Shown piece by piece: positions 1 through 14,940 of a stretch of 20,000 nucleotides of DNA. Source of the DNA: an uncultured virus (IMG/VR IMGVR_UViG_3300037458_000449) (lineage: Duplodnaviria; Heunggongvirae; Uroviricota; Caudoviricetes); the IMG/VR virus record IMGVR_UViG_3300037458_000449; one strand, given 5' to 3'. Within the stretch, counting starts at the first letter, position 1. Every line of letters begins with the position of its first letter. The translations under genes and the position numbers were made by a program. Under the pieces are notes generated by a model, which saw nothing but the letters and a program-made list of their open reading frames with translations, did no database searches and was not told the origin of the DNA.

Positions 1-21
1 TGGGCGCCGGGGCGCAGCCGT

Positions 22-53
22 AGAATATTCACTACGGCCGAGAATATTTACTA
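22..53. repeat. Tandem 13-bp direct repeat AGAATATT(C/T)ACTA; candidate integrase arm-type sites
   Basis: agaatattcacta 22-34 and agaatatttacta 41-53; AT-rich, just past the xis stop; gccgtag/ctacggc inverted repeat at 17-38. Confidence 0.5.
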
Positions 54-76
54 TCGCGCGTGCGCCTGCGGCCCAT
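32..76 (-). pseudogene. Possible remnant 5' end of a tyrosine integrase (MGRRRTRDSKYSRP*)
   Basis: ATG at 76 overlaps the 3' end of xis where int normally starts; basic MGRRRT N-terminus typical of integrases paired with DUF4224; stop after 14 codons. Confidence 0.4.
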
Positions 77-272
77 CCAATGCCCCCCAGTTCGGTTCCT
101 GCGTCGCCGCTCGGCCGCCCACCATCCGCTTATTGAACTCGGCCACGGCGACTTTCGGCTGGCCGAGGGCGTTGACGCTAAACCGCCAGCCATGACGTTG
201 CAACCATCGCACCTGTGCGGACGACCGAGCGTAGCCGGTCAAGGCTTCGATTTCCGACTGAGGCATCAGCAT
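51..272 (-). CDS. xis: DUF4224-family excisionase-like protein
   Basis: EIEALTGYARSSAQVRWLQRHGWRF..NALGQPKV and C-terminal EPNWGAL are typical of DUF4224; last gene of the leftward operon. Confidence 0.8.
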   Translation of the reverse strand: MLMPQSEIEALTGYARSSAQVRWLQRHGWRFSVNALGQPKVAVAEFNKRMVGGRAATQEPNWGALDGPQAHAR

Positions 273-661
273 GGGATCAGCGTGTTGAACGGCGGCCGGT
301 AGTGTCGAATGTAGGCACGCTCAGCGGCAGTTACCGCTGCCCGAAGGCTGTCGGTGACGATCCGCGACTGAGCTTGCGGCGGCCATACCAGCACGGTTGC
401 GCGATTGAAGGGTATCGGCTTTCCCGATCGCCGCCCGTCCCTGGCTAACTGATGAGAGACGAGCCGCGCCTGAACGCTGTGCGAGTGACCGACATATAGC
501 AGTCGCGGTCCTTGCCAGAGAAAATAGATCGCCGAGACGTACTCATCGAAAGAGTCGGCGTTCTCCGGCAGCCCGCGAAGCTGATCGAGCGGGAGCGCGA
601 CGACGGCCGCCGGCTGTTCCAGCCCGCTCATGCGCTGCAGCTTGGCGAACGTCACAATCAC
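266..661 (-). CDS. GIY-YIG nuclease domain protein
   Basis: AIYFL...LLYVGHS..VQARL..H and AERAYIRHYRPPFN motifs; GTG start at 661 overlaps upstream TGA (GTGA). Confidence 0.75.
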   Translation of the reverse strand: MIVTFAKLQRMSGLEQPAAVVALPLDQLRGLPENADSFDEYVSAIYFLWQGPRLLYVGHSHSVQARLVSHQLARDGRRSGKPIPFNRATVLVWPPQAQSRIVTDSLRAAVTAAERAYIRHYRPPFNTLIPC

Positions 662-873
662 GGACCTGGCCGCTCCCGCGCAAGGAAGGCGTCGATGTCT
701 CGCTGGCATCCCTTTCCTTGAATCGTTAAGGTGTCGATCTTGCCACGCGCACTAGCGAGCAATTCGACGGCCTCGGCCAGCCGCGCCGCGAGGGCGTCTA
801 CAGCCTCCGCACATTCGCGTGAGCCGTTCTGTCGAAGAATACTGACTGCTTCCTTGACCCAGAAATTATTCAT
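658..873 (-). CDS. Modular accessory protein (RLAEA linker, DIDAFLA end)
   Basis: ATG at 873 overlaps previous stop; MNNFWVKEAV...ARLAEAVELL...RDIDAFLARERPGP. Confidence 0.65.
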   Translation of the reverse strand: MNNFWVKEAVSILRQNGSRECAEAVDALAARLAEAVELLASARGKIDTLTIQGKGCQRDIDAFLARERPGP

Positions 874-1201
874 GCTCGCACCCGCACGGCTCGTCTGAGA
901 TCCCAGCAACCGGGTCGCCCTGAATCCATCCCGTGTCGCCGCAGCGTTCGCACTTAGGCCCGGATGCGCTGTCCGGTGCGAGGAAGGCGTCGATGGCGGC
1001 GTCAAGCCGAAGGCTGTCGTACTCGTACCAAGTCTCGGGATCGTCATTGTCTGCGATAGTCACAGAGACTCCGTTCTCTGCTATGCGCAGCCACCGATAC
1101 CGCTCCGCGTCCTTGCGCAGCGCCTCTAGATCACACATGGCGCAGCCCTGATAGGCGTCCTCGCCGTGCTTATCGCAGCCGTAACTTTCGGTGGTGATCA
1201 T
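866..1201 (-). CDS. Modular accessory protein (Ead/Ea22-like LRKDAERYRWLR linker, Cys-rich tail)
   Basis: ALRKDAERYRWLR...LDAAIDA motif common in lambdoid ea-region genes; CxxC...CGC tail; coupled starts/stops. Confidence 0.75.
   Translation of the reverse strand: MITTESYGCDKHGEDAYQGCAMCDLEALRKDAERYRWLRIAENGVSVTIADNDDPETWYEYDSLRLDAAIDAFLAPDSASGPKCERCGDTGWIQGDPVAGISDEPCGCEHE
877..971. repeat. Repeat A copy 1 (~95 bp; copy 2 at 2082-2176)
   Basis: About 9 mismatches by eye; encodes SGPKCERCxDTGWIQGDPVxGISDEPCGC. Confidence 0.95.
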
Positions 1202-1536
1202 GGCTGCCTCGCAAGGTGGGCGTCGATGCGGGACTCTAGGGCGAGGTCTTTATTCATCTGTTCGCAATGCTTCCGCGTATGGAACTCGTCGCCGCGCTTC
1301 ATTGCGGCTTCCCATGATCGCCGGTGCTTGCGGATGTGCGACTGTACGGACGGCAGGGCCTCCCGCAGCAGCGCCTCGGCCTCGGCCAGCCGCGAGCGCA
1401 GGGATTCGATCTCGTCGGCCAGCGGCGTGATAAGCCCGAAACGCTCTTCTGTGCATTCCTCGCACTCACAAATCGAATCCGACCAGTGTGCGTTGACACG
1501 CTGGACTAATCGCGCACGTTCCACGATGTCACTCAT
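1198..1536 (-). CDS. Modular accessory protein (ADEIESLRSRLAEAEALLRE linker)
   Basis: MSDIVER start, CxCxxC, coiled-coil linker, RIDAHLA end; GGAGG SD; coupled to both neighbours. Confidence 0.75.
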   Translation of the reverse strand: MSDIVERARLVQRVNAHWSDSICECEECTEERFGLITPLADEIESLRSRLAEAEALLREALPSVQSHIRKHRRSWEAAMKRGDEFHTRKHCEQMNKDLALESRIDAHLARQP

Positions 1537-1792
1537 GTCCCACCTCCAAGAGCTTGCGTAGGTCGGTGCAGTCGGGGCAGGGATCGGCGTCGTCCATCCC
1601 GGCCCCTTCCTCGTATGGTGATTTCAACTCACCGAAGCCCTCGCACCGCCAGCACGTCACCTTCCCCGCCGCCTCGCGCAGGGCGTCGTAGTCCTCACTG
1701 CGCACATAGTCGCCGTCTGGCTCGGGGCGCATTTCATATCTGTCATCGTCGCTGTATGGCGCAAGAGCCAGACCGAATCGCCTGACGCTCAT
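1529..1792 (-). CDS. Accessory protein with DGDYVRSEDY motif and CxxCxGxG...CxxC zinc finger
   Basis: ORF translation; ATGA overlap upstream. Confidence 0.7.
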   Translation of the reverse strand: MSVRRFGLALAPYSDDDRYEMRPEPDGDYVRSEDYDALREAAGKVTCWRCEGFGELKSPYEEGAGMDDADPCPDCTDLRKLLEVGHE

Positions 1793-2331
1793 GGTTTTCC
1801 CTCCCGCGTAAGGTGGGCGGCGATGCGGTCAGGATGCGGTCCCCAATAATGGTGAGCCGTCGTTTCAAAGATAACGCTGCCTCTGTATTGAAGTTCTCGC
1901 AGCAGCGCCTCGGCCTCGGCTAGCCGCGCTTGTATATCGACTTCGCACTGCTCCGCGTCACGCCTACCGCTCTTGTCGTCGCAAAGCTCGCAGTACAAGG
2001 GTTCGCCTGTTTCGGCGGAACGCAGAAGCAGCGAGGCCGGGTGCTCACAAGTGAGTGCTGGCGGCGTGTCACGCGCCTCCGCGCACCCGCACGGCTCGTC
2101 TGAGATTCCAAAAACCGGGTCGCCCTGAATCCAGCCCGTGTCGCTACACCTTTCGCACTTAGGCCCGGATGTGCTGACAGCGGCTCGCACTATCGCGTCC
2201 AGTTCGTTGAACTGATCTTCGTCCAGCAAGTCTGCACAGCGTGCCATGATCTTTTGCAGTCTCGCCTCTGCTTTCATGGCGCGTTCGTGCCAGTGCGCCG
2301 CGTTGCTTGTTCCTTCGTCCTTGATTTTCAT
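1789..2331 (-). CDS. Chimeric modular accessory protein (repeat B + repeat A + Zn module + RLAEAEALLRE)
   Basis: ATG at 2331 equivalent to paralog start at 3510; contains both long repeats. Confidence 0.75.
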   Translation of the reverse strand: MKIKDEGTSNAAHWHERAMKAEARLQKIMARCADLLDEDQFNELDAIVRAAVSTSGPKCERCSDTGWIQGDPVFGISDEPCGCAEARDTPPALTCEHPASLLLRSAETGEPLYCELCDDKSGRRDAEQCEVDIQARLAEAEALLRELQYRGSVIFETTAHHYWGPHPDRIAAHLTREGKP

Positions 2332-2333
2332 GG
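2173..2333. repeat. Repeat B copy 1 (161 bp; copy 2 at 3352-3512)
   Basis: 3 mismatches by eye; encodes MKI(K/N)DEGTSNAAHWHERAMKAEARLQKIMARCADLLDEDQFNELDAIVRA. Confidence 0.97.
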
Positions 2334-2335
2334 AG

Positions 2336-3334
2336 TCACCTTCGGCTGCACGTAGCAACGTGGATAATTGGCCCGTCGCTGGTCATGGCCTGACCGCGAC
2401 ATTCGGCGCAAAACCAATGCGGCACCGTGGGGGATTCGGACAATGAGATTCCGGCTTGTTCGTAGCACCATTGCTGGCAGGATGAGCCGGGGTAATCGTC
2501 GCCCACGGATTTGAGTGCTGCGCGCAGCCGCTCAATCTCGTCGGCGGCTGCATACCCTGCGTCCTCCAAAAGATCGCCGGCGGCACCTCCACGCAATGCT
2601 GCGATTAAGTCTTTTCCTGTCAGTTTTTCATATTTGATACCGCTCATCGCGCACCTCTCTGAGTCGTTGAAGCCGGGCATGTCCACCCGCTTTTTGTTGT
2701 AATAGCCGAGCGCGTCGGCTATACCCTCTTCGAAGTAGTCCAACGGCTGTATAGGTCCGCCGTATACGGTGGCGCAGTCGTCTAGCAGGCTGTCGATAGC
2801 CTTGCTATGCGCGTCGCGTCCCCAGCATCGAATGCACTTCCCGTCCCGGTAGGTGCAGCCATGCGTAGCACAGGTAACATCCGGGGCGCTGTCCGCCGCC
2901 GCAAGCGTATCTCGGCCAATTGTCATCAACTCAGCGGCACGCTTCTCGGCTTCCTCTCGCGTCGGCCACTCAGGAACCTCACCGATTGGTTTCCCGCCAA
3001 GTATCGAAGCCGCCGTCTGACGCGCCACCTCGTTCATGAGCCTGTTCTTGTCGTCGGCAATCAGTTGCAGGCCAGAGCGAAGCCGCTCGATTTCCATCTG
3101 TTGATCCACAAGCCATCGCGCAGGAGAGCAAGCTGGGCAATCCTCGGCGTGCCCGTGGCTGTCACAGTCACACTCGTTGGTGGACTCGTTCACCGCCGCT
3201 TTGAGTAGCACGGCTGCCGCTAATGGCTTGGCGTAACTCGCCGCTTCTTCTGCGATCAACTCCTTGACGCGCCGTTCAATGCTCTGTCGGCGGTCATCGG
3301 GGAGTCCATCTAGTACGTCGTTCAGCGTTTTCAT
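2336..3334 (-). CDS. Multi-module accessory protein with antitoxin-like N-terminal helix and several Cys clusters
   Basis: 332 aa ORF; two EIERLR linkers; ADSA linker; internal SD-ATG at 2647. Confidence 0.75.
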   Translation of the reverse strand: MKTLNDVLDGLPDDRRQSIERRVKELIAEEAASYAKPLAAAVLLKAAVNESTNECDCDSHGHAEDCPACSPARWLVDQQMEIERLRSGLQLIADDKNRLMNEVARQTAASILGGKPIGEVPEWPTREEAEKRAAELMTIGRDTLAAADSAPDVTCATHGCTYRDGKCIRCWGRDAHSKAIDSLLDDCATVYGGPIQPLDYFEEGIADALGYYNKKRVDMPGFNDSERCAMSGIKYEKLTGKDLIAALRGGAAGDLLEDAGYAAADEIERLRAALKSVGDDYPGSSCQQWCYEQAGISLSESPTVPHWFCAECRGQAMTSDGPIIHVATCSRR

Positions 3335-3510
3335 TTCTGCACCTCGTCTGCGCTGACAGTGGCTCGCACTATCGCGTCCAGTTCGTTGAACTGATCCTCG
3401 TCCAGCAAGTCTGCACAGCGTGCCATGATCTTTTGCAGTCTCGCCTCTGCTTTCATGGCGCGTTCGTGCCAGTGCGCCGCGTTGCTTGTTCCTTCGTCGT
3501 TGATTTTCAT
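3331..3510 (-). CDS. Small protein consisting of module B only
   Basis: ATGA overlaps at both ends; paralog of the 1789-2331 N-terminus. Confidence 0.7.
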   Translation of the reverse strand: MKINDEGTSNAAHWHERAMKAEARLQKIMARCADLLDEDQFNELDAIVRATVSADEVQK

Positions 3511-3896
3511 GGTGCGGCGTCCTGCGTGACGGTTGAAGCGGCTCTCTCCTCGAAAGCCTCTAGCGCCTGCTCCCACGGGCAGTTCATGTTGCTGTGTTCG
3601 CCAATCTCGACGCCTAGCAGCGTGGCGATGGCGTCGGCCAGTTTGTCCGCCATGCCCTGAGCATGGTCACGCTCACCGATCAACTGGTCCATATCACGCT
3701 CAGCCTCGGCCAGCCGCTTCTCTAGTGCAATGTTTGCTTGCGCCTGTGCCTCGCAGTTGAAACGTGCAATGGCAAGGGCATCATCCGCCTCGGCCAGCCG
3801 CGAGCGGAGGGAGCGTTCCTCGCAACGGCACATCCTTGCGCGGTTGTGATCCACCGGCATTAGGATCGCTTCGCACTGGTTGTCGTGGTCACTCAT
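3507..3896 (-). CDS. Ead/Ea22-like modular protein
   Basis: Two RLAEA linkers; C-terminal LADAIATLLGVEIGEHSNMNCPWEQAL segment recognisable from phage ea-region proteins; start at 3896 with GGAG SD. Confidence 0.7.
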   Translation of the reverse strand: MSDHDNQCEAILMPVDHNRARMCRCEERSLRSRLAEADDALAIARFNCEAQAQANIALEKRLAEAERDMDQLIGERDHAQGMADKLADAIATLLGVEIGEHSNMNCPWEQALEAFEERAASTVTQDAAP

Positions 3897-4164
3897 GTCC
3901 CTGCTCCATTGCTGCGTCGAAATCGGCTCGCGTCGCGGTGCCAGCACGATCCATTCGATCTGCCAGCGTGAGATCAAGGCCGCGTAGTTTTGCTGACGCC
4001 AATGGGATCGCAGTCAAGGCATCGCGAGCCTCTTGAAATAGCGGGATAATGTCCGTGAGCCGCCACTTGTAGTATTCCGCGTCCTTGCGCAGCGCCGCGT
4101 TCTCAGCGGTCAGGCGGGCAATCTCGGCGTTTTGCTGCTCGATGATGGCGTCAATCATGGTCAT
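3889..4164 (-). CDS. Modular accessory protein (ALRKDAE linker)
   Basis: ATG at 4164 in ATGA overlap; ends GHE* like 1529-1792. Confidence 0.7.
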   Translation of the reverse strand: MTMIDAIIEQQNAEIARLTAENAALRKDAEYYKWRLTDIIPLFQEARDALTAIPLASAKLRGLDLTLADRMDRAGTATRADFDAAMEQGHE

Positions 4165-4322
4165 TTTCGCCCCTGCTCCCGCGCCGCCGGCCCGTGGCGC
4201 AGCTGCTCCTGGGCGCGCAGCATCCGCCGAGCCTGCTCGAGCTCGCTCGGCGTCCAAGGCCGCAGATGCAGAGGGCCGAGTTCCTTGTTCGGCATGAAGG
4301 GGATCGCGGGTTTGGCGGTCAT
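4161..4322 (-). CDS. Small hypothetical protein (MTAKPAIPFMPNKELGPLHLRPW...)
   Basis: 53 aa ORF that exactly fills the gap, with ATGA overlaps at both ends. Confidence 0.6.
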   Translation of the reverse strand: MTAKPAIPFMPNKELGPLHLRPWTPSELEQARRMLRAQEQLRHGPAAREQGRK

Positions 4323-4447
4323 CCTGCGGCTCCGGGTTCGTATTCAAAGTGGTGGCACCTGGCCGTCGCCAGTTGCTCAAGCGCGAAGCACCAAAGGCCG
4401 CCCGTCTCGGCGTGATACCGGGACCAGCGGCAGGCGTGGCAATTCAT
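4319..4447 (-). CDS. Small Cys-rich protein (MNCHACRW...WC...RCHHFEYEPG)
   Basis: 42 aa; ATGA overlaps at both ends; CxxC..C..C pattern. Confidence 0.6.
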   Translation of the reverse strand: MNCHACRWSRYHAETGGLWCFALEQLATARCHHFEYEPGAAG

Positions 4448-4716
4448 AGCGCACCTTCCTTCACCAACGCGTACTGGGTCCGAATGACGCCCTCGAGGAA
4501 CGACCGCGCTGTTGCGTCGTCCCGGTGCGAGTCCACATAGGAATGGCAGGCTGAGCAGGCCCAGGCCGCGCAGACGTCCGGTGCTTTCATGCCCATTCCG
4601 CTGACGCCCGCCATTCGGTAGTGCGCCAGCACGGTCGTCTCGGGGTTGAAGTTGCAAACGCCCGGCAGCCGGATCTGGCAGTCGCGGCCACGGGCGAGCT
4701 TGCGGAGCTTCGTCAC
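4444..4716 (-). CDS. DUF1364 (YbcO-like) HNH-fold protein
   Basis: KLRKLARGRDCQIRLPGVCNFNPETTVLAHYR...GMKAPD...AWACSACH signature. Confidence 0.9.
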   Translation of the reverse strand: MTKLRKLARGRDCQIRLPGVCNFNPETTVLAHYRMAGVSGMGMKAPDVCAAWACSACHSYVDSHRDDATARSFLEGVIRTQYALVKEGAL

Positions 4717-5033
4717 AGGTTCACACCCTGCTTCCGCGCCGAGTTTTCCGACCGGAAGACTTCGATGGTGTAGACGGCGGCCTCGCGCATCGCGCGGATC
4801 GTTTCGTATTCCGCGATGGCGTTCTTCATGTCGGTGAGGGCCGCCTGGTAGGCATCCGAGGCGTAGGCAGACCGCTCGCGATCGGCGACCGAGCCCTCGT
4901 CGGGCATGTTCAGCGCCTTGACGCGCCGCAGGCCTTCCTCGCAGTAACGGGCATGGCCGCGGGCCTGCCCGTACTGCTTCGCGGTGTCACGCAGGTACTC
5001 GACGGCCGCCTCGGCGCGATCCTCTCCGATCAT
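4713..5033 (-). CDS. Conserved helical phage protein of recombination modules (possibly UvsY-like)
   Basis: SVADRERSAYASDAY...IEVFRSENSARK pattern; position downstream of exo/erf. Confidence 0.6.
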   Translation of the reverse strand: MIGEDRAEAAVEYLRDTAKQYGQARGHARYCEEGLRRVKALNMPDEGSVADRERSAYASDAYQAALTDMKNAIAEYETIRAMREAAVYTIEVFRSENSARKQGVNL

Positions 5034-5926
5034 GCAGCGCGCTCCGTACCGAAGGCCTCGCGCAGCCAGCCGATGATCGTGGTGCGCGGCGCCTTGTAGT
5101 GCGCCTCGAGGACGTCGAGGATGTCGCGCGCGGTCGGGCGCGCGAGCGGCGCAACCGACGAAACTGACGGAACCGGGGTTATGTCGGTTTTGTCTGTTCC
5201 GGGGGCGCTCGTCACGACCGCCGCAGCCCGCTGCCGGGCGAGTTCGGCCCGCTCAGCGTCGAGCTTCCTGCGTTCCTCGGCATCGCGCTTCGCCTGGGCG
5301 GCCCGCAACTGCTCAAGCTCGGCCCGCTCAGCGGCGAGCCGCGCCTGCTCAGCCTCACGCTCCTGCGCGGCCGCATGGAGATCCTGCAGCGTCGTGGCGG
5401 TTTCGGTGAGGACGCGGCCGGCCTCGTCCTTGAACTCGGCGAACGAGTCGTCAATCGAGACTTGCGCGAGCTCGCTGATGCGCCGGCTGATCTTGTCGGT
5501 CGAGAACGCGGCGGCCGTCGTTGCCATGCCGCGGATCTGCTCAATCCGCGCGCGGATCTTCTCGACGCGCTGCTGCTCGGCGCGGATCTTCGCCTGGCGC
5601 TCGGCCTCGCGGCGGGCTTCCTCGGCGGTGATCTGCTGGTCGATGGGCGTCTCGATCGCGAGCAGCGCGGCCGTGATGCGCTTGGCCTCGTCGTCAATCT
5701 GCCGGCCCAGCGCAAGCAGCGGCGCCTTGGCGTCCTTGCGGACCTTCTCGACCTCGTAGCGCGGCTCGCGGATGGTCCGGCGAGCGAGGCGCGCGGCCTC
5801 GATGCCCTCGGTCGTGGTGACGTCGTAGACGACGCCGGCGTACTGCTCCGTCAACGCGGCGAGTCCGGCCTCGACGCGATTGAAGTCGGCCAGCGCCCCG
5901 GTGATTTTGTCGATGTTCGTGGTCAT
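5030..5926 (-). CDS. Long coiled-coil phage protein (DUF1351-like)
   Basis: YDVTTTEG..AR..R...VEKVRKDAKAP....GRQIDDEAKRI N-terminal pattern followed by an Ala/Glu/Arg coiled coil. Confidence 0.75.
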   Translation of the reverse strand: MTTNIDKITGALADFNRVEAGLAALTEQYAGVVYDVTTTEGIEAARLARRTIREPRYEVEKVRKDAKAPLLALGRQIDDEAKRITAALLAIETPIDQQITAEEARREAERQAKIRAEQQRVEKIRARIEQIRGMATTAAAFSTDKISRRISELAQVSIDDSFAEFKDEAGRVLTETATTLQDLHAAAQEREAEQARLAAERAELEQLRAAQAKRDAEERRKLDAERAELARQRAAAVVTSAPGTDKTDITPVPSVSSVAPLARPTARDILDVLEAHYKAPRTTIIGWLREAFGTERAA

Positions 5927-6549
5927 GCTGCCTCCGTGAACTGAGCGACCAGCGCATTAACCTCGTCGCTGAAGACTTTGACGCTCGCTCGCAGCAGTGA
6001 AATGTATTCCTCGTCTCTTTCAACCCGGATGACGTAGAGCGGCAGCTTCGGCCAATAGGAGACGTAGTCCACCCACTGCCGGCCGGCAATCATCATCTGC
6101 CCTTGAACTTGAGCCTTGTGCTCTGACGGGAGGCCTCCGGTGAGCAGCAACTCAAGGTGCAGCTCTGGCAGGCGAGTCTTGATTTCAAGCATCCCGTCGT
6201 CGCCGATCAGCCCGTCCGGGCTTGCGCCTGCACCAATCTGCGTGTTGCGAATGAACGCGACCTGCCGAACATCGGCCCCCGTGCGAAACGAGTAGAGATC
6301 GCGGGCTTCGGCCTCCAATGCCTTGCCGCGATCCATGTGAGCGTTTGAGTAGGATTCGCTCACTTCTTGCGTCAGTCGCTCGGCAACAATCGAAAGCAGG
6401 TACTTCCTGCGCGTGACGGACTCACCGCCGCCGCGCCCTTTGGCGAGCACGTCAGCAAAGCGCGAGGCTGTTGGGCAGCCGCATCGCAACTGTTGCCAAT
6501 CGGCCGTTCCTTGTTCGACGCCTTCGGTAATTACAATGTGTGATTCCAT
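5923..6549 (-). CDS. YqaJ / lambda-exonuclease family 5'-3' exonuclease
   Basis: QGTADWQQLRCGCPTAS, MDRGKALEAEAR, GASPDGLI, LEIK, QVQGQM motifs; likely start ATG at 6549. Confidence 0.92.
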   Translation of the reverse strand: MESHIVITEGVEQGTADWQQLRCGCPTASRFADVLAKGRGGGESVTRRKYLLSIVAERLTQEVSESYSNAHMDRGKALEAEARDLYSFRTGADVRQVAFIRNTQIGAGASPDGLIGDDGMLEIKTRLPELHLELLLTGGLPSEHKAQVQGQMMIAGRQWVDYVSYWPKLPLYVIRVERDEEYISLLRASVKVFSDEVNALVAQFTEAA

Positions 6550-7046
6550 GTCTTGCCCTTGAGAATTGAAGAAATGTTTGCTGGCGTGACCCGGAAGTGA
6601 CGGGCGATGTCTTTGCCCAACACTCCGTTTCTGTTCATGTCGCGAATGCGCTGCACGTCGCTTGTGGTCAGCTTTGCTAGAAAGTTCCGTTCGCCGCGAG
6701 CAGACCGGCCATGGCGAACCTTGTCGGCGTGGTTGGCCTTGCGCGTGTCCCATCGCAGATTGCATAGCCGATTGTCGGCCGGATTTCCGTTGTAGTGGCA
6801 CGCCTCCATCCCTTCAGGGCAGGGGCCAGCGAAGGCCGAGAGCACCAGCCGGTGAACGAGCATGAACGGACTGCCGCGACCAAGCCGAAGATGAAGGTGC
6901 CCGCTCTTCATGGGTTTTGGTGAGAGCACCCGGCCGCGCCACTTGCGACCCGAGGGCAGCGTTCTCGATAGGCTGCGAACGCGCCCGAGGCTGGATACCT
7001 CGTAGGCTCCTTCATGACCTCGGATCGGGCGCCATTCCTCTATCAC
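6531..7046 (-). CDS. NUMOD4-HNH homing endonuclease with C-terminal HTH
   Basis: EEWRPIRGHEGAYEVSSLGRVRS (NUMOD4); VHRLV...CHYNGNPADNRLCNLRW (HNH_3); IARHFRVTPANISSI HTH. Confidence 0.93.
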   Translation of the reverse strand: MIEEWRPIRGHEGAYEVSSLGRVRSLSRTLPSGRKWRGRVLSPKPMKSGHLHLRLGRGSPFMLVHRLVLSAFAGPCPEGMEACHYNGNPADNRLCNLRWDTRKANHADKVRHGRSARGERNFLAKLTTSDVQRIRDMNRNGVLGKDIARHFRVTPANISSILKGKTWNHTL

Positions 7047-7780
7047 GAACGTGCCCTCGCGCGAACTTCGCGAACGATCGCGTTATAGTTCTTGGCTGCA
7101 ATCTGATCGAGTGACGTAACTTTCGCCCACTTCATAAAGCGATCGATGTTTGCGCCGGTTTCGTCCAGCAGCGCGCGGAGGTCGGCGACCTGGCTTTCGG
7201 TGATGACGTCGATCGACGCGCCGCGGCCGTCATCGTCTATGTCCTTGGTCGCGAGGCCGGTCGCGGCGAGCAGCGTGTATCGCTGCAGGTAGGAAACCGC
7301 CGAGCCGATCGCCTGGATCGCGTTCTTGCCGCCGGACTGATCGGCGGATCCCGTGAGCGTCGTGCGCTCGCTGTGGCCCTGCTCATGCGTCAGGACGCAA
7401 TGGACCGTGATGCGGTCGTTCTGCTGTTCGACGTCCCAGCGATGACTGATGCCAACGTCGGCCAGGCCTTTGATCACGGCCGCGCAGACATCCGCGAGGG
7501 TCGCGTGCATGTAGTCGGTCGTCCCCTTCTGCGTCGTGAAGTTGACGTGCTTGCGCTTGAGGATTTCCGGCGGGTTCCGCTTGAACTGCGCCATGGCGGC
7601 GACGTAGGCCTTGCGCGCCTCGTTCGCTTCCCATCGTTCCTGCAGCGCCATCAGCTGCTCGAGCTTGGCGAGGTCGGCGCCCTGGTCGAGCGCGACCTGT
7701 AGCATCTGCATGGGCGTAACCGCAGGGCGGTCCTGCACGATGGCGGGCTGCATGGGCCGCGCCTCTACTACTGCGTTCAT
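7043..7780 (-). CDS. erf: ERF-family single-strand annealing protein
   Basis: GGKNAIQAIGSAVSYLQRYTLLAATGLATKDIDDDG ERF motif; LTHEQGHSE. Confidence 0.92.
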   Translation of the reverse strand: MNAVVEARPMQPAIVQDRPAVTPMQMLQVALDQGADLAKLEQLMALQERWEANEARKAYVAAMAQFKRNPPEILKRKHVNFTTQKGTTDYMHATLADVCAAVIKGLADVGISHRWDVEQQNDRITVHCVLTHEQGHSERTTLTGSADQSGGKNAIQAIGSAVSYLQRYTLLAATGLATKDIDDDGRGASIDVITESQVADLRALLDETGANIDRFMKWAKVTSLDQIAAKNYNAIVREVRARARS

Positions 7781-7989
7781 GTGTTCCCCTCATTGGTGGG
7801 CTGGCGGTGCAGCACGGTCTGTCCGTGCTGCGTCGAAATCGTGAGTCCGGTGCCGCGCAGCGCGTTGACGAGCTCGCCTACGCTCATGTCGCGCAGCATC
7901 AGGACGTGGAAGGTCGGGGCCGCGGGCTGGCGACGGCGGGCTGCGCGAGCCTCGAAGAACGGCGTCGCGTCGATGGTGTTGCTGCTCAC
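7777..7989 (-). CDS. Hypothetical early protein
   Basis: GTG start in GTGA overlap; ends in ATGA overlap with erf. Confidence 0.6.
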   Translation of the reverse strand: MSSNTIDATPFFEARAARRRQPAAPTFHVLMLRDMSVGELVNALRGTGLTISTQHGQTVLHRQPTNEGNT

Positions 7990-8189
7990 GACTGGATCCC
8001 GGCCTGCGTCTTGCGGCCGCGTTCTTCCATGCGGCGGCGGGCGTCCTGCCGACGCAGGTCTTTCCATTGATGCTCGGTGAAATCGCCGTAGTCGCTGTCG
8101 CCGCGCTTGGCGAACGACAGGAACTCGAGGATGAGATACACGGCTACCAGCCAGAGGCAGGCGAGCATCAGTCCCGTGGCCCAACTCAT
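7986..8189 (-). CDS. Small membrane-anchored early protein
   Basis: N-terminal hydrophobic helix MSWATGLMLACLWLVAVYLILEFLSF; ATGA overlap. Confidence 0.65.
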   Translation of the reverse strand: MSWATGLMLACLWLVAVYLILEFLSFAKRGDSDYGDFTEHQWKDLRRQDARRRMEERGRKTQAGIQS

Positions 8190-8488
8190 GACGTGCGCTC
8201 CTCGCTGCAGCAGTTGAGGCAGCGGAAGTTCAGCAGCGCGGCCGACGACACCGGCACGGACGACGCGAGCGGGACATCCCGGCCGCAACGCTGGCAGGTT
8301 GCCGTGTTGTCGTAGACCGGCTTGGCGACGGGCGCCTTGATGATCTCCATGGCTTCATCAAGGCCGTGCCTACGGCCATGCATCCATGCGATCTCGGCGA
8401 GCTTTACCGGGTCAGCGCCAGCGAATTTAGCGAACAGCCGTTCGGCGGCGAGCCGGGCCGTGTCGATGTCGGAAGATACTGAGGTCAT
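8186..8488 (-). CDS. First gene of the leftward operon; C-terminal zinc ribbon
   Basis: GGAG SD before ATG at 8488; CQRC...CLNC. Confidence 0.7.
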   Translation of the reverse strand: MTSVSSDIDTARLAAERLFAKFAGADPVKLAEIAWMHGRRHGLDEAMEIIKAPVAKPVYDNTATCQRCGRDVPLASSVPVSSAALLNFRCLNCCSEERTS

Positions 8489-8519
8489 CTTGGGGCTCCG
8501 TCCTGTGGAAGGAGCGCCC

Positions 8520-8548
8520 AAGGTAATGCCGATTGGCCGTTAGGTCAA
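8520..8548 (-). promoter_or_regulatory. PL-like sigma70 promoter
   Basis: TTGACC (8548-8543) - 17 bp - TACCTT (8525-8520), upstream of the leftward operon. Confidence 0.75.
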
Positions 8549-8558
8549 TACCTTTGAG

Positions 8559-8855
8559 TCAACATTCTGGACAGCCGACAGCCGGGCTGTTCCAAGGTTG
8601 AACGGCGAGGATCGAGGCGGCCAGGAGCAGCGCCACCAGCTGCCAGCGCATCGGCACGCGCGAGCCGCGCCGCGGCAGCAGGTTCCACGCGAGCAGCCCC
8701 GGCAGGCATAGCGCGACCGCGGCGAGGAAGAACTGGATGAGGAACTGCGCGAGCCTCGCGGCCGGCAGGTTCCAGAGCATCACCTGGGCGGCGGCGATCC
8801 CGGCGGCCCACCCTGCCCCCCACGTTATGTCGCGGATGGTCAGGGCCGGCGGCAT
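8559..8855 (-). CDS. Small multi-pass membrane protein downstream of repressor (rex/sie position)
   Basis: ATG 2 nt after the cI stop; three hydrophobic segments; ends CPEC. Confidence 0.7.
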   Translation of the reverse strand: MPPALTIRDITWGAGWAAGIAAAQVMLWNLPAARLAQFLIQFFLAAVALCLPGLLAWNLLPRRGSRVPMRWQLVALLLAASILAVQPWNSPAVGCPEC

Positions 8856-8857
8856 CG

Positions 8858-9505
8858 TCAGTATTGCTTGGCCTGGTAGATGACGCGGCCGATGATCTGG
8901 CCGTCGCCGAGCTCGACCATGCGCTCGGGATAGTCGTCGTTGATCGCGCGCAGGTACGTCACGTCGCCGTCGATCACCAGCTGACGCAGGATTGGTACCT
9001 TGCGCCCGGCAGGCCTCGCGACGACGAAATCCCCATGTTTTGCAGGGGTTGAAGCGTCTATGTAGATCAGCCACCCGTCACGGAACTCAGGCTCCATGGC
9101 GGGCCCGCGCACAATCGAGGCGCAGGCGGAATCGGGGACTCCCGCGGGTTGCGGTGCGTAGTCGGTCGCAGCTGTCGAGTTCATTCGTCTTAGTTGTCCG
9201 TGGTCGGAATGGACCAGATTTTCGAGCGCGATTATAGGTACACGTCCAGTCGTAAGGTAAGAATTTTCCGAGGTTTCTAGTGAGTCTCCGTAGCCGTTCA
9301 GCCGGTCGAGGTCGCCCCGCTCGAGGCCGAGCGTGACCTCGATCTCGCGCGCCAGCTTCTCGCCGAGGGCTTTCTTGCCCGTGACGAGGCGGCTGACGTA
9401 GTCGGCCTGGCGGCCGATCGCAAGCCCGAACTTGCTTTGCACACCCCCGAACCTTGAGTCGATCAGGGCCCGTAAGTTCCGTCTCCGGGTATCTGTTGTT
9501 TGCAT
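8858..9505 (-). CDS. cI: CI-like repressor, HTH plus degenerate S24 peptidase domain
   Basis: RRRNLRALI...QSKFGLAIGRQADYVSRL...GEKLAREIE HTH; VRGPAMEPEFRDG, GDFVVAR, YLRAIN, IIGRVI S24 fold; divergent from cro. Confidence 0.9.
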   Translation of the reverse strand: MQTTDTRRRNLRALIDSRFGGVQSKFGLAIGRQADYVSRLVTGKKALGEKLAREIEVTLGLERGDLDRLNGYGDSLETSENSYLTTGRVPIIALENLVHSDHGQLRRMNSTAATDYAPQPAGVPDSACASIVRGPAMEPEFRDGWLIYIDASTPAKHGDFVVARPAGRKVPILRQLVIDGDVTYLRAINDDYPERMVELGDGQIIGRVIYQAKQY

Positions 9506-9552
9506 GATGGAAGGGTAGGCCGACTCCGGCAAAAAGAAATGCGCTGCCGGTA

Positions 9553-9580
9553 TTGACCAACGTTGTCCTCGGGGTAAACT
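9553..9580 (+). promoter_or_regulatory. PR-like sigma70 promoter
   Basis: TTGACC (9553-9558) - 16 bp - TAAACT (9575-9580); ATG 9 nt further on with no SD, so a near-leaderless mRNA. Confidence 0.7.
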
Positions 9581-9589
9581 CTCGGCCCT

Positions 9590-9826
9590 ATGGACAAGCT
9601 CAAGGCCCACATCAACAGCATGACCACCCTCGAGCAATTCTTCTTTGCTCATCGGTGCGGCACCACCATCGGCTACATCAGGAAGCGCATCAGCATCGGC
9701 GGGCGCTTCGGCCAGAAGATCGCCGCGGCCATCGACCGCGAGACAGGCGGGAAGGTCCCGCTCGCCGAGATCGGGCCGATCGAGGATGAGGCCCGACCTC
9801 GCAGCAAGCGTCAGCGCGCGGCGTAG
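9590..9826 (+). CDS. cro: Cro/YdaS-like HTH regulator
   Basis: FAHRCGTTIGYIRK...AAAIDRETGGKV pattern; divergent from cI. Confidence 0.85.
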   Translation: MDKLKAHINSMTTLEQFFFAHRCGTTIGYIRKRISIGGRFGQKIAAAIDRETGGKVPLAEIGPIEDEARPRSKRQRAA

Positions 9827-9832
9827 TCGCGC

Positions 9833-10036
9833 ATGGCCGACGAAGACCTCATTGAAGTTCGCGCGAAGATCGAGGCGGAAACCAACCGCGTGCTCGACGC
9901 CGTAGCGGTCGCGACCGGGCAGGACAAGAGCGCGATCGTTCGTGAGGTCATGCGCAAGTGGGGAAGCGACGAGATCCATAGGGCAACCATCGTCCTGCGC
10001 GTTGTCTCGCGCAAGGGAAGCGGGGCGGAAACATGA
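9833..10036 (+). CDS. Ribbon-helix-helix regulator in the cII position
   Basis: EVRAKI (strand) - ETNRVLDAVAVATG - DKSAIVREVMRKW pattern. Confidence 0.7.
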   Translation: MADEDLIEVRAKIEAETNRVLDAVAVATGQDKSAIVREVMRKWGSDEIHRATIVLRVVSRKGSGAET

Positions 10037-10242
10037 CGGCGTCCCAGCGGAAGGCGAGCGGCATGCCGCGGCGCCGCGGACAAGTGTGCGTGGTGTGTGG
10101 CTACCCAGCCCCCGAATCCACCGCGCCGCTCTGTGACCAATGCCACGACTGGCAAGGGGTCGCGGCGTATGCGGACGCGGCGATCCAGTTCAGCAAGAGC
10201 CCCGCGCTTGCGCCAGGGCAAACGAAAGGGGGCGAGCAGTAA
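10033..10242 (+). CDS. Small zinc-finger protein
   Basis: CVVC...CDQC; coupled at both ends. Confidence 0.65.
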   Translation: MTASQRKASGMPRRRGQVCVVCGYPAPESTAPLCDQCHDWQGVAAYADAAIQFSKSPALAPGQTKGGEQ

Positions 10243-11132
10243 TGGCGCGCATCCGCACAATCAAACCTGAGTTCCCGCAGTCGGAAAGCATGGGGCGCGT
10301 GAGCCGCGATGCCCGGCTGTTGTTCGTGCTGTTGTGGACCGTCTGCGATGACGCCGGACGCTCGCGAGGGGACCCGAGACTGCTCAAAGGGCTGCTGTTC
10401 CCCTATGACGAGGTCGCGTACAGCGAGATTGAGGCATGGTTGGCAGAGCTCGAGGCCGAGGGTTGCCTTACGCAGTATGCTCGCGAGGGCTCGCGATACC
10501 TCGCGATTCGTAACTGGTTGAGCCACCAGAAGATTGACCGGCCATCAAGGTCGAGACTTCCAGAGCCACCCGAGACTGTCGCGAAGGCTCGCGAGGATTC
10601 GCGAGACAGTCGCGAGGCCTCGTCGGGGGATCTAGGACCTAGGACCGGGACCAAGGACCATACCGGGACCCTCGCGAGCGGCGCCGAGCCGCCGTCGCCA
10701 TCGCCGCAAGCGGCGAGCCCGCCCACGAAGCCAGCGCGGACCAAGACCCCGACCAAGACCCCATACCCCGATGATCTCGCGTGGGACGACAAGCTGCGGC
10801 AGTACGCCACCGAGCGGCTGCCCGATGTTGACGTCGATGCGCTGATCGAATCATTCCGCGGCAAGGCGCTCGCGAAGGGCTGGAAGTTCGCGAACTGGCG
10901 ACAGGCCGCGCAGGAGTACATCCGCAACTGCGCGCCGAACTCGGGACACTTTGCCGCCGGCCAATACCCGCGCCTGCTCGCCGTCGTCCATGCGGAGTCG
11001 CCTGACGCCCCCGCGACGCTGCCGAACGGCGACCCGAATCCGATCGTCGTCGTGGCCGGCAAGCGAGTGCGCCAGTACATCCTCGGGCCCGGCGGCCAGG
11101 TCGGCACGAACCCGGAGGCCGTGCGATGGTGA
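10242..11132 (+). CDS. Phage replication initiator (O-like)
   Basis: MARIRTIKPEF...ARLLFVLLWTVCDDAGR...NWLSHQKIDRPS N-terminus; internal iterons; TAATG coupling. Confidence 0.85.
   Translation: MARIRTIKPEFPQSESMGRVSRDARLLFVLLWTVCDDAGRSRGDPRLLKGLLFPYDEVAYSEIEAWLAELEAEGCLTQYAREGSRYLAIRNWLSHQKIDRPSRSRLPEPPETVAKAREDSRDSREASSGDLGPRTGTKDHTGTLASGAEPPSPSPQAASPPTKPARTKTPTKTPYPDDLAWDDKLRQYATERLPDVDVDALIESFRGKALAKGWKFANWRQAAQEYIRNCAPNSGHFAAGQYPRLLAVVHAESPDAPATLPNGDPNPIVVVAGKRVRQYILGPGGQVGTNPEAVRW
10579..10677. repeat. Candidate replication origin: TCGCGA iterons and GGACC repeats
   Basis: TCGCGA at 10579, 10589, 10599, 10610 and 10672; clustered GGACC repeats at about 10627-10670. Confidence 0.7.
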
Positions 11133-11464
11133 CATGGGCTGATCTCGCAGAACTCCGCGCCCGCGGCCAGCGACCCGCGCTCCCGGTCTACGTCACCAAC
11201 CGCCCCGTACTGGCGCGGAACATGAGCGACGTCGGCTGCCTGACGATTCTGCACAAGTCCGGCGAGCCGATGCCCGTGGAACTGCTGCGCGGGCTCGACG
11301 TGCGCCTCGACTTCGACCTCTGCGAAACGGCCGGGCACGTCAAGCGGCTCATGGATCGCCGTGACGTTCAGGCGGCTTCGCTGCGCGCGTGGTGCCGCTG
11401 CGCCAGAGGGTTTACCGCCATCTGCGGCGCATGCGACACAGGGGGCGAGCCATGGAACAGCTAA
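11126..11464 (+). CDS. Hypothetical protein between initiator and helicase
   Basis: 112 aa; overlaps both neighbours; C-terminal CRC...CGAC. Confidence 0.7.
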   Translation: MVTWADLAELRARGQRPALPVYVTNRPVLARNMSDVGCLTILHKSGEPMPVELLRGLDVRLDFDLCETAGHVKRLMDRRDVQAASLRAWCRCARGFTAICGACDTGGEPWNS

Positions 11465-12387
11465 AGCGCGGCAGCCTGCGCGGGATCTTCGTCACGCAGG
11501 ACGACCCAGCGTTCCTCGAGGCAGCGGTTGATCCCGAGCGCGTCATCCTCGATCTGAATGGGCAGAACGTCAGCGAGTTGCGCGAGGCGTTCCTCGCGAA
11601 ACAGGCCGCGTACAGCACGACGCCATTCGATCCCGAGGGGCGCCGGCTGCGCCTGTTCCCCGGCGGCTTCACGATCTGGTCGGGCTTCCCTGGCAGCGGC
11701 AAGACGACGCTGTTGCGGCAGCTGACTTGCCACTTGCTGCAGTCCGGCGGCGTGTTCTTCGCCTCGCTCGAGGAGGACCCGCGCGATTTGCTGGTGCGTG
11801 TCGCCGGGGTGGCCGCCGGCCGGGAAATGCCGTCGGACGATGAGCTCGACTGGTTCCTGTTCCAGCACGGCGAGCGGCTGAAACTGTGGGGAGTCATCGG
11901 GCTCGCGCGGTATCAGGAAATCCTCGCGACGGTGCGTGTACTGGCGCGGCAAGGAATCCGCCACGCGATCATCGACAGCCTCATGTGCCTCGACGTGAAC
12001 AGCACGGATTGGGAGGCGCAGCGGCAGTTTGCGACGGCCCTTTCGGCGACCGCGCGCCTCTCCGGCGCCCACATCCACCTTGTCGCCCATCCGCGGAAGC
12101 TCGTCTCGGCCGATCAGGCGCCGGACATCAACGACGTCGCCGGCAGCGCCGACCTTGGGCGACTGGCCGACAACGTGATTTTCATTCGCCGATCAAACAC
12201 CGAGGCCGGCATCGGCGGCGACGCTACGCCCATGTCCATCGCAATCCGCAAGCAGCGCCACGGCACCGGCGCGACGGGCGACGTTGCCGGCTGGTTCCAT
12301 CGGCATTTTCGTCAGTTCCACGTCGATCAATTCGCGCAGGAGCCCATCCGCTACCTGCGCCCCGAGGCCTACGCGAGGCACGCATGA
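11452..12387 (+). CDS. SF4 (DnaB / T7 gp4-like) replicative helicase domain
   Basis: Walker A GFPGSGKT, SLEE, IIDSL, HIHLVAHPRK, GSADLGRLADNV, KQRHG. Confidence 0.9.
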   Translation: MEQLKRGSLRGIFVTQDDPAFLEAAVDPERVILDLNGQNVSELREAFLAKQAAYSTTPFDPEGRRLRLFPGGFTIWSGFPGSGKTTLLRQLTCHLLQSGGVFFASLEEDPRDLLVRVAGVAAGREMPSDDELDWFLFQHGERLKLWGVIGLARYQEILATVRVLARQGIRHAIIDSLMCLDVNSTDWEAQRQFATALSATARLSGAHIHLVAHPRKLVSADQAPDINDVAGSADLGRLADNVIFIRRSNTEAGIGGDATPMSIAIRKQRHGTGATGDVAGWFHRHFRQFHVDQFAQEPIRYLRPEAYARHA

Positions 12388-14442: not shown

Positions 14443-14940
14443 ATGACCACCAGCAACACCACAATTCCGATGTTCGTCCGCGAAGCCGGCCGGCGCTACC
14501 GCCCGGCAACCCGAGACGAAATCCTCGTCGCGGCCGGCAGCTTCATGTACCGGCAGATGCTCGGCGAGACGCTGCGCAGCCCCGACCACACCAGCAAGTA
14601 CCTGACGAGCTACCTCGGCAAGCTCGACTACGAAGTGTTCGGCGTCATCCTGCTCGATAACCGGCACCGCATCATCCACGTCGAGGAACTGTTCCGCGGC
14701 ACGATCGACGGCGCCAGCGTCCACCCGCGCGAGGTCGTGCGGTTGATGATCCTGCATAACGCCGCAGCCATCGTCCTGTTCCACAACCACCCGAGCGGCA
14801 ACCCCGAGCCCTCGCAGGCCGACGAGCTCATCACCCACCGCATCCGCGATGCCGTCGGCCTCATCGACGCGCGCCTGCTCGATCACTTCATCGCCGCCGC
14901 TGACCGGACCGTGAGCTTCGCGGCAAGGGGTCTGCTGTGA
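14443..14940 (+). CDS. radC: RadC-like JAB/MPN domain protein (short, mobile-element type)
   Basis: EVFGVILLDNRHRII...LFRGTIDGASVHPREVV...HNHPSGNPEPSQAD...LLDH. Confidence 0.95.
   Translation: MTTSNTTIPMFVREAGRRYRPATRDEILVAAGSFMYRQMLGETLRSPDHTSKYLTSYLGKLDYEVFGVILLDNRHRIIHVEELFRGTIDGASVHPREVVRLMILHNAAAIVLFHNHPSGNPEPSQADELITHRIRDAVGLIDARLLDHFIAAADRTVSFAARGLL

Follow-up and report, generated by a model that had tools for sequence, protein, structure and literature searches.

Mosaic ea22, ead, and eaa genes (lambda Ea22, P22 Ead and EaA, and HK620 HkaG and HkaE; PF13935 and DUF551) lie between the exonuclease and excisionase (xis) genes, and their products consist of a head, a coiled coil, and a variable end. 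Ea22 is a tetramer with this layout that favours lysogeny (PMC10834534 and PMC8614690), and the ea22 genes of Stx phages are mosaic (PMC10834534). The ead, hkaG, and ea22 genes share a head, a coil (87-90% nucleotide identity), and a 28-nucleotide (nt) tail and differ in between. Here we describe an array of nine small genes, g1-g9, at positions 658-4164 on the minus strand of a 20,000-nt stretch of DNA (hereafter the window) from an uncultured, lambda-like wetland phage (IMG/VR record IMGVR_UViG_3300037458_000449). The array occupies the same position and, judged by models of g5 and g8 only together with heptad tests, has a similar head, coil, and variable-end layout. Comparison with its relatives shows many module orders, with apparent crossovers that cluster at a few short words of coding DNA (joints) and keep the reading frame and, mostly, the heptad phase. 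The array probably represents an extreme combinatorial form of the ea-type accessory block that lambda-like phages carry between exo and xis, built from a module pool that unrelated phages share.

Other described systems resemble the array in part. Papers on HK620 and on T4 PeSL reportedly describe conserved boundary or linker sequences between phage genes. The array joints are likewise short conserved words that would focus exchange, for example the shared stop/start tails of the junction called (vi) below, but boundary sequences of that kind (cited in PMC3233612) lie between genes, whereas the joints are mostly inside genes and are bound by frame and heptad register. Rad52-like annealases (Red-beta, RecT, and Erf) recombine DNA with relaxed requirements: D3 Erf/Exo recombines 78%-identical DNA (PMC3945230), and RecET joins 5-13 bp at a low rate (PMC2327257). 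The mosaics published for such systems have medians of 130-500 bp and, in the passages cited, are not resolved into reusable intragenic joints, whereas the median short shared segment in the array is 26 nt long. Phage proteins have also been described as domain mosaics whose fragments continue to be shuffled under host-related selection (PMC10684548); in the text cited, the focus is on tail fibres, spikes, endolysins, and replication proteins, and small unknown accessory proteins are called an unexplored reservoir. The array has the shuffled protein fragments in common with it but consists of small accessory proteins. A full-text literature search, with most subscription papers outside its scope, returned Ea22 mosaics, relaxed recombination, and boundary sequences and no multi-joint, register-keeping module pool.

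Within the window, repeats are concentrated in the array. There are 15 pairs of exact direct repeats of at least 14 nt in 658-4164, compared with 1, 1, 2, and 0 in the next four stretches of 3507 nt. Counted as exact 14-mer pairs, the 15 of the array compare with 0 in lambda, 2 in P22, 0 in HK620, and 2 in D3, and with 0-10 in sister arrays; high repeat counts in the backbones of L037 and L042 were set aside as tandem repeats (judged by eye, in L042/L043 only). Tandem repeats of short units were seen in a pentapeptide-repeat gene of the L042/L043 upstream backbone and in a Gly-Tyr-rich repeat gene of L016 (2445-2687). The strongest evidence for array repeats comes from two long ones that were missing from a preliminary description of the window: a 164-nt repeat (2170-2333 and 3349-3512; 97.6% identity) and a 95-nt repeat (877-971 and 2082-2176; 90.5%). 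Through them, codons 1-54 of g5 match g7 and the following 30 match the g2 tail, showing g5 to be a chimera of a g7 head and a g2 tail. The g7-like and g2-like repeats overlap at the chimeric junction (2170-2176, minus strand) in about 7 shared nt.

Such a junction raises the question of whether assembly joined co-occurring phages through shared repeats. All close relatives are metagenomic contigs, and the contigs of sequencing run X1 break at the long repeats, with no piece covering the whole array. However, the X1 pieces have 0 differences to the window at an even depth of 12.5-18, and one contig (1899-2211) crosses the g5 junction without any difference; misassembly is therefore unlikely. 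Moreover, a read is longer than most joints, a foreign module order (g6b head followed by g7 middle) recurs in 11 proteins, and partial sharing of this kind is also found in the isolates P22, HK620, and lambda. None of the 24 sequencing runs listed is an RNA run, and runs X7-X24, with a low share, were left out and bear no weight on habitat. We regard an assembly artefact as highly improbable.

The preliminary description had proposed that nine coupled genes reuse a small set of DNA linkers, each always in one reading frame. All six motif sets are present at the sites it gave, on the minus strand and in one frame per set. Joint (i) has five copies (770, 1379, 1913, 3703, and 3787), and 1364-1394 and 1898-1928 have 1 difference in 31 nt. 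Joint (ii), an exact 21-mer encoding ALRKDAE, is at 1104 and 4076. Joint (iii) is at 682-696, 980-994, 1213-1227, and 1810-1824, where the last copy reads IAAHL; joint (iv) at 1396-1413, 2522-2539, and 3077-3094; and joint (v) at 965-973, 2170-2178, 2885-2893, and 3349-3357. The two copies of junction (vi), a GHE*/MSD stop/start, differ at 2 of 21 nt. The longest composite joint, (iv)+(i), reads EIESLRSRLAEAEALLR (1364-1413, minus strand), and its codons are nearly invariant across contigs (LRSRL, 0.86 identical against 0.21 and 0.35 expected).

Of the two outcomes that the preliminary description had said would refute it, neither was borne out: relatives with a fixed gene order and no breaks at linkers were not found (see below), and codon bias does not account for the linker identity of joint (i), although it does so for (iv) in the window. 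We compared observed synonymous identity with two codon-bias expectations, each by 20,000 resamplings. Joint (i) has an identity of 0.78 against 0.31 and 0.41 expected, a value reached by 0 and 3 resamplings; for (ii) the counts are 213 and 917 and for (iii) 128 and 794, a weaker excess, and for (iv) the identity in the window is fully explained. Across contigs, codon identity is 0.86-0.93 for LRSRL, ALRKDAE, AENAAL, and RAENAEAAL, where 0.21-0.48 was expected.

Relatives were gathered by protein scans and linker-pattern scans, which gave 45 loci; after 6 loci on the source contig and 11 duplicates were dropped, 28 were compared. An IMG/VR contig identical over 1-12331 was taken as the source and not counted as support, and pattern scans of metagenome contigs and of genome contigs yielded 1 locus each. 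The relatives have no fixed gene order. Shared segments with at least 40 non-linker bases (26 segments, 51 usable ends) ended on named linkers in 17 cases, at gene borders in 6, and elsewhere in 28. Among distinct internal ends, 13 of 31 fell on the linkers of the preliminary description, where 16.7% was expected (P = 8e-4), as its picture of combinatorial shuffling with breakpoints at linkers had predicted. Ends also recurred at joints it had not listed (KAEARL in g5 and g7, an internal start at 2647, and ALR in g4), and breaks recurred in g7 at 3436-3450. The real arrangement is looser than its single fixed grammar of heads, linkers, and tails, with the extra joints KAEARL, LTAENAAL, and RAENAEAAL and with internal start codons.

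Single genes illustrate these swaps. The segment 1196-1413 (g3 from joint (iv) on) is found at 98% identity in L037 behind another head, with the break at 1413, and L037 also has 1527-1687 of g4 (73%). In L006, 2902-3094 of g6 is 98% identical. The g2 head and the g2 middle are in two separate genes of L041, split at (ii) and (iii), and in L004 the last head of g6 runs into the second half of g7 and then joint (i). We chose 56 array genes from 16 contigs by hand and found 615 segments shared among them. The reading frame is kept in 609, the remaining 6 all contain gaps, and no segment is shared with the opposite strand. Gene pairs that share at least 45 nt do so partially in 100 of 101 cases and are homologous end to end in one.

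Protein searches, which are independent of linker patterns, gave the same picture. For g2, 37 non-self matches covered 25-73% of the protein, none at full length. For g5 there were 133 matches, and among the 120 listed only g5 itself is full length, with match ends clustering at residues 22-25, 46-57, 85-95, 128, and 141-146; g8 had 31 non-self matches. With joints left out of the module definitions, modules of different window genes are combined in 29 of 226 proteins, in 14 orders, and single modules have 6-23 distinct neighbours: the g2 head has 10 distinct continuations in 26 occurrences, and the g2 middle has 6 distinct predecessors in 7. When the g2 middle module was compared with a profile library, 15 matches were found, of which 8 long repeat proteins were judged by inspection to be chance and were excluded from later counts. 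One protein (P0011) is made up of pieces of g7, g8, g5, and g1, and its g8-to-g5 junction is also present as a DNA joint in run X5; another (P0194) has the g8 coil and then, at its end, the g1 tail unchanged. Joints from runs X4 and X5 whose partner could not be placed are probably from other phages and were left out of the counts. A count of motif proximity (87 of 166, against a 19% background) used motifs chosen afterwards, and we do not rely on it.

These breakpoints might also arise by untargeted illegitimate recombination of which only in-frame, register-keeping products survive, the linkers being conserved helix ends of small domain families, a model laid out for phages generally in PMC3233612. 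In its favour, joints (ii) and (iii) frame a domain that is also found in Pseudomonas phage proteins (phrog_4029), and the ratio of nonsynonymous to synonymous divergence (dN/dS) is as low in joints as in modules. Genes with unrelated flanks, however, have 513 short segments in common (median 26 nt, median 93% identity); the joint codons are more alike than expected, as given above; and synonymous divergence is 0.135 in joints against 0.259 in the adjoining modules, a difference that alignment ends may bias. We consider untargeted events filtered by selection an unlikely explanation. We infer that annealase-driven recombination acts at the joint words, and the breakpoints carry shared homology of the kind that annealase action at microhomology implies.

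A number of points weigh against targeted, register-keeping exchange at the joints. Breakpoints lie off the linkers of the preliminary description in 18 of 31 distinct cases, several at unlisted joints and others scattered. Joint (iv) has no synonymous excess inside the window (0.50, reached by 4522 and 11,935 of the 20,000 resamplings), nor does IDAAM across contigs, as selection alone would have it. The copies of joint (v) share about 7 nt only, below the ~30 bp that Red-beta needs (PMC3945230). The 56 array genes were hand-picked, some of their loci having been fetched by linker patterns, and neither the gene pairs nor the inserts are independent of one another (the 40 inserts represent about 20 module types). 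The anchors for heptad phase were set after examples had been seen, again for about 20 independent module types; the test of the LRSRL upstream flank is borderline (p 0.05); and the dimer score of the g8 model, described next, may come from likeness to solved coiled coils. Many joints are at most 30 nt long; swaps may therefore occur rarely and be retained by selection, and the data cannot fully separate targeting from filtering.

What the joints encode was approached through structure prediction. In the g5 model, helices span residues 8-54 and 115-161, and joints (i) and KAEARL are inside long helices. The g8 model is a single helix over residues 15-94 (predicted local distance difference test, pLDDT, 91-98 over residues 21-90). 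Residues 24-120 of g8 were modelled as a parallel dimer with a score of 0.71, compared with 0.01 for the best control; this mark was reached by 20 of 30 true pairs and by 1 of 23 single chains. The dimer runs agree in at least 98% of contacts, with a pLDDT of at least 89, and L34 and L62, which belong to the two (i) copies of g8, are in the modelled interface. Of the 40 unbroken inserts that lie between joints, 26 preserve the heptad phase and 10 more shift it by 3 or 4. In unrelated, de-duplicated flanks of joint (i), hydrophobic residues occupy a/d positions in 62 of 131 cases upstream (p 2e-4) and 63 of 155 downstream (p 4e-4), with a weaker signal at (ii) (p 0.02) and (iv) (p 0.008). According to these models and tests, the main joints are inside parallel coiled coils and keep the heptad register, and they are not neutral spacers.

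The region could alternatively be dispensable, with duplication and gene conversion spreading coiled-coil DNA and products of little function. The lambda exo-xis region is dispensable for replication (PMC10834534), no array gene has a family match, the g5 model has no fold match, and most clusters have 1-5 members. Neutral churn of this kind is at odds with a dN/dS of about 0.15 in modules (0.18 in joints) over 50 segments, which are not independent; with the register kept in unrelated flanks; and with the state of the 56 array genes, all of which are intact and mostly translationally coupled. Modules and joints alike are under purifying selection by this measure, and we rate neutral churn as very unlikely.

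The near-identical DNA words that recur at module borders also bring to mind cassette shuffling at one specific site by a dedicated enzyme, as in integrons, shufflons, or protease-cut polyproteins. But there are at least 8 different joint words, which have no common core, symmetry, or fixed length; a tyrosine recombinase (PF00589) was found in 0 of 5 sister records (all less than 90% complete) and in none of the scanned window open reading frames (ORFs); and the joints are mid-helix in the modelled dimer core, unlike protease sites. A cassette system is thus largely refuted by its many unrelated joint words, missing recombinase match, and mid-helix joints, and we hold it to be extremely improbable; the position of the joints in the modelled dimer core also led us to reject a protease-cut polyprotein. 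A diversity-generating retroelement was rejected as well: no reverse transcriptase was present among 30 scanned ORFs of the window, which is part of a 64-kb contig, and the 164-nt copies differ at 4 mixed positions.

The module pool extends over several phage backbones. Its carriers include the ERF-encoding L037 and L042, the PolA/SNF2 phage L014 (and, by eye, L039), and L006, of the deoxynucleoside monophosphate (dNMP) kinase type. Segments of at least 60 nt common to the window and other contigs are at least 90% identical in 12 of 22 cases, whereas Erf relatives, detected in 2 of 5 records, have 30-36% protein identity; exchange is therefore recent and confined to the array, and it runs between unrelated phages, beyond the window locus alone. 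In the nucleotide search of 50,697 phage records, only 4 matches of about 40 nt were found, three of them at joint (ii), and tblastn with g2 and g8 gave 3 and 1 weak matches; hence the phage records searched hold no cultured close relative. L036, in which xis is followed by a long integrase-like ORF, comes from an assembly labelled Rhodothermales, but its contig of 2.8 kb is too short to be a reliable host clue. A segment of g10 (window 4161-4322), 'LHLRPWT..ELEQA.RM', was also seen by eye in a PolA/SNF2 phage gene (L039, 7333-7488, reversed strand), so sharing may extend upstream of the array.

The preliminary description had made the phage's own Erf and exonuclease the driver of shuffling. 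As in the described annealase systems, genes for Erf and YqaJ are present upstream of the array, which keeps the idea plausible. ERF is absent, however, from 5 of 5 further records, 2 of which are complete PolA/SNF2 phages that carry the same modules and an Enc34-type single-stranded-DNA-binding protein. The local Erf is therefore unneeded for the pool as such, a candidate driver and not a defining part.

We suggest that a community of otherwise unrelated phages draws on a pool of modules of 20-70 residues, which comprises heads that are helical, tails of the helix-loop-helix kind, pieces of coil, and small zinc knuckles. When phages co-infect a cell or a prophage is rescued, joints of about 15-35 nt, or longer modules that both DNAs carry, would be annealed by a single-strand annealing protein of the phage together with its exonuclease (Erf/YqaJ here, an Enc34-type protein elsewhere). 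Since the residues encoded by the joints fall on the a/d core of a parallel coiled coil, crossing over between any pair of copies would yield a foldable dimeric stalk with new heads and tails that survives selection, and repeated use of the joints would keep their DNA alike. The products may be oligomeric stalks of the Ea22 type whose small, variable domains bind host proteins early in infection, with roles in lysis-lysogeny tuning, takeover, or anti-defence. A possible but doubtful variant is an evolved, enzyme-independent diversity generator common to unrelated phages of one host community, in which heptads double as DNA joints, dozens of small binding modules are recombined into new parallel-dimer stalks, and heterodimers add combinations aimed at host defence or regulatory proteins; heterodimers of paralogues are possible because paralogues share coil segments.

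Compared with the ea22/ead/eaa mosaics, the array appears to work in the same way without belonging to their families, and it reuses its joints far more densely. Several joints recur among nine paralogues of one genome, a single gene can hold as many as five swappable modules, and lambdoid, PolA/SNF2, and dNMP-kinase backbones all draw on the pool. The g1-g9 products have no Ead_Ea22 or DUF551 domain at E<=0.01 (Pfam), and g5 is nearest to the named Atlas cluster Ead_Ea22 at only 0.76, at most a lead. There are nonetheless points of contact. The (ii)-(iii) module stands behind a true Ead_Ea22 domain in gp11 of phage Amjad_SA and in L023, both Pseudomonas-type, and a motif pair like (ii)-(iii) ends D3 orf40. 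A DUF551 gene is inside a sister array (L037, 7422-7712), and the domain is also on P22 EaA-like and Stx Ea22 variants. At L028 (2592-3629), an IS630-like transposase ORF, identified by eye, is next to an Ead-like gene with joint (ii). In the isolate record of phage Amjad_SA (L047, 5220-6650), an 873-nt two-gene block appears twice in tandem, which may be real or an assembly error.

Each of the nine genes, all on the minus strand, can be read as a string of modules. From the excisionase side, g1 (658-873, 71 amino acids, aa) has a head, joint (i), a tail module, and joint (iii); g2 (866-1201, 111 aa) a Cys/His head, joint (ii), a middle module, joints (iii)/(v), and a CxxC..CxC zinc module; and g3 (1198-1536, 112 aa) a head, joints (iv)+(i), a middle module, and joint (iii). 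In g4 (1529-1792, 87 aa), a head and the ALR joint precede a DnaJ/anti-TRAP-like zinc module (E 0.001 against Anti-TRAP in Pfam, below the cut-off) and junction (vi). The chimeric g5 (1789-2331, 180 aa) combines the g7 head, a g2-type zinc module, a CEHP zinc knuckle, joint (i), a tail, and joint (iii). The longest gene, g6 (2336-3334, 332 aa), is an in-frame fusion in which an internal Shine-Dalgarno sequence and ATG at 2647 begin a segment that exists as a free-standing gene in L014; because both are kept in the fusion, g6 may give two products (buried start, window 2640-2665). Buried heads like those of g6 are also present in P0015 and P0056. The short g7 (3331-3510, 59 aa) consists of two modules joined at KAEARL, with joint (v) last; g8 (3507-3896, 129 aa), the predicted parallel coiled-coil dimer, of a head, joint (i), a coil module, joint (i), and a tail module; and g9 (3889-4164, 91 aa) of a coiled head, LTAENAAL plus joint (ii), a middle module, and an AAMEQGHE tail with junction (vi).

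The minus strand runs, in order, through an S24 repressor (8858-9508), the Erf single-strand annealing protein (7043-7780; Pfam E 2.8e-15, PHROG E 1.6e-36), an HNH gene, a YqaJ/RecE-like exonuclease (5923-6552; Pfam E 1.8e-22), YbcO, g9-g1, and an excisionase-like DUF4224 gene (51-272; Pfam E 1.2e-12, PHROG excisionase) that forms the downstream border of the region. Because the array stands between exonuclease and excisionase in the leftward early operon, we equate it with an exo-xis block. Next to g1 is g0 (266-661, minus strand), a weakly endonuclease-like ORF without linkers (phrog_1111, E 0.0048). The HNH gene, a NUMOD4-HNH homing endonuclease gene (6531-7046), is inserted between erf and the exonuclease gene. 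Plus-strand genes of the window include, by Pfam, helicase, RadC, lysozyme, and terminase genes; the RadC-like JAB protein gene (14443-14940) belongs to the rightward operon, and the RadC family is a candidate anti-restriction factor. Downstream of the excisionase gene, a 14-codon start resembles an integrase N-terminus (window 12-75, with a stop at 32-34); no integrase follows xis in the contig, and the window phage looks to have lost it. The next gene of the same contig (L001, 12196-17270), on the opposite strand, encodes a protein of 1653 aa in which, by eye, an intein-like insert was seen. Promoter and terminator scans gave nothing specific (2 promoters, 1.6 expected).

As to function, g1-g9 matched no family over the cut-off in Pfam, NCBIfam, or PADLOC, with no known anti-defence domain in the Pfam and NCBIfam/PADLOC scans, and PHROGs matches for g2, g8, and g9 are to families of unknown function only. 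A fold search with the g5 model found no match at E<=0.001 in PDB and BFVD, and Atlas feature scores for g5 and g8 are below 0.9. The sole link to anti-defence is a relative of the g8 tail (3537-3695), about 60% identical over the module, that sits behind a Lar restriction-alleviation domain in P0185, P0187, and P0190; Lar was over the cut-off in 3 of 83 module-sharing proteins, all of them distant relatives of the g8 tail. The counter-defence role suggested in the preliminary description thus gained no support from these scans. Since Ea22, which favours lysogeny, is a tetramer whose chains have a head, a coil, and a variable end, the array products are somewhat better explained as binders of host proteins than in any other way. 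An anti-defence role, as part of such binding, is a doubtful prospect overall; another function is possible, though on the unlikely side, and near-neutral products are improbable.

The shuffling thus appears real and well supported, as a form of the known ea-type mosaicism. No block of phage 'dark matter' is larger than that of the small early genes, and our results suggest that the unit of evolution in this group is a module of 20-70 residues rather than the gene, which would be why whole-protein clustering leaves singletons. Screens for host-takeover or anti-defence activity might then be better run module by module, and the register-preserving natural joints may be useful for coiled-coil design. 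The array also makes directly testable an old question, whether short homology targets mosaic boundaries or selection only filters them, because each joint is defined to the single nucleotide and could be recoded with the protein left unchanged.

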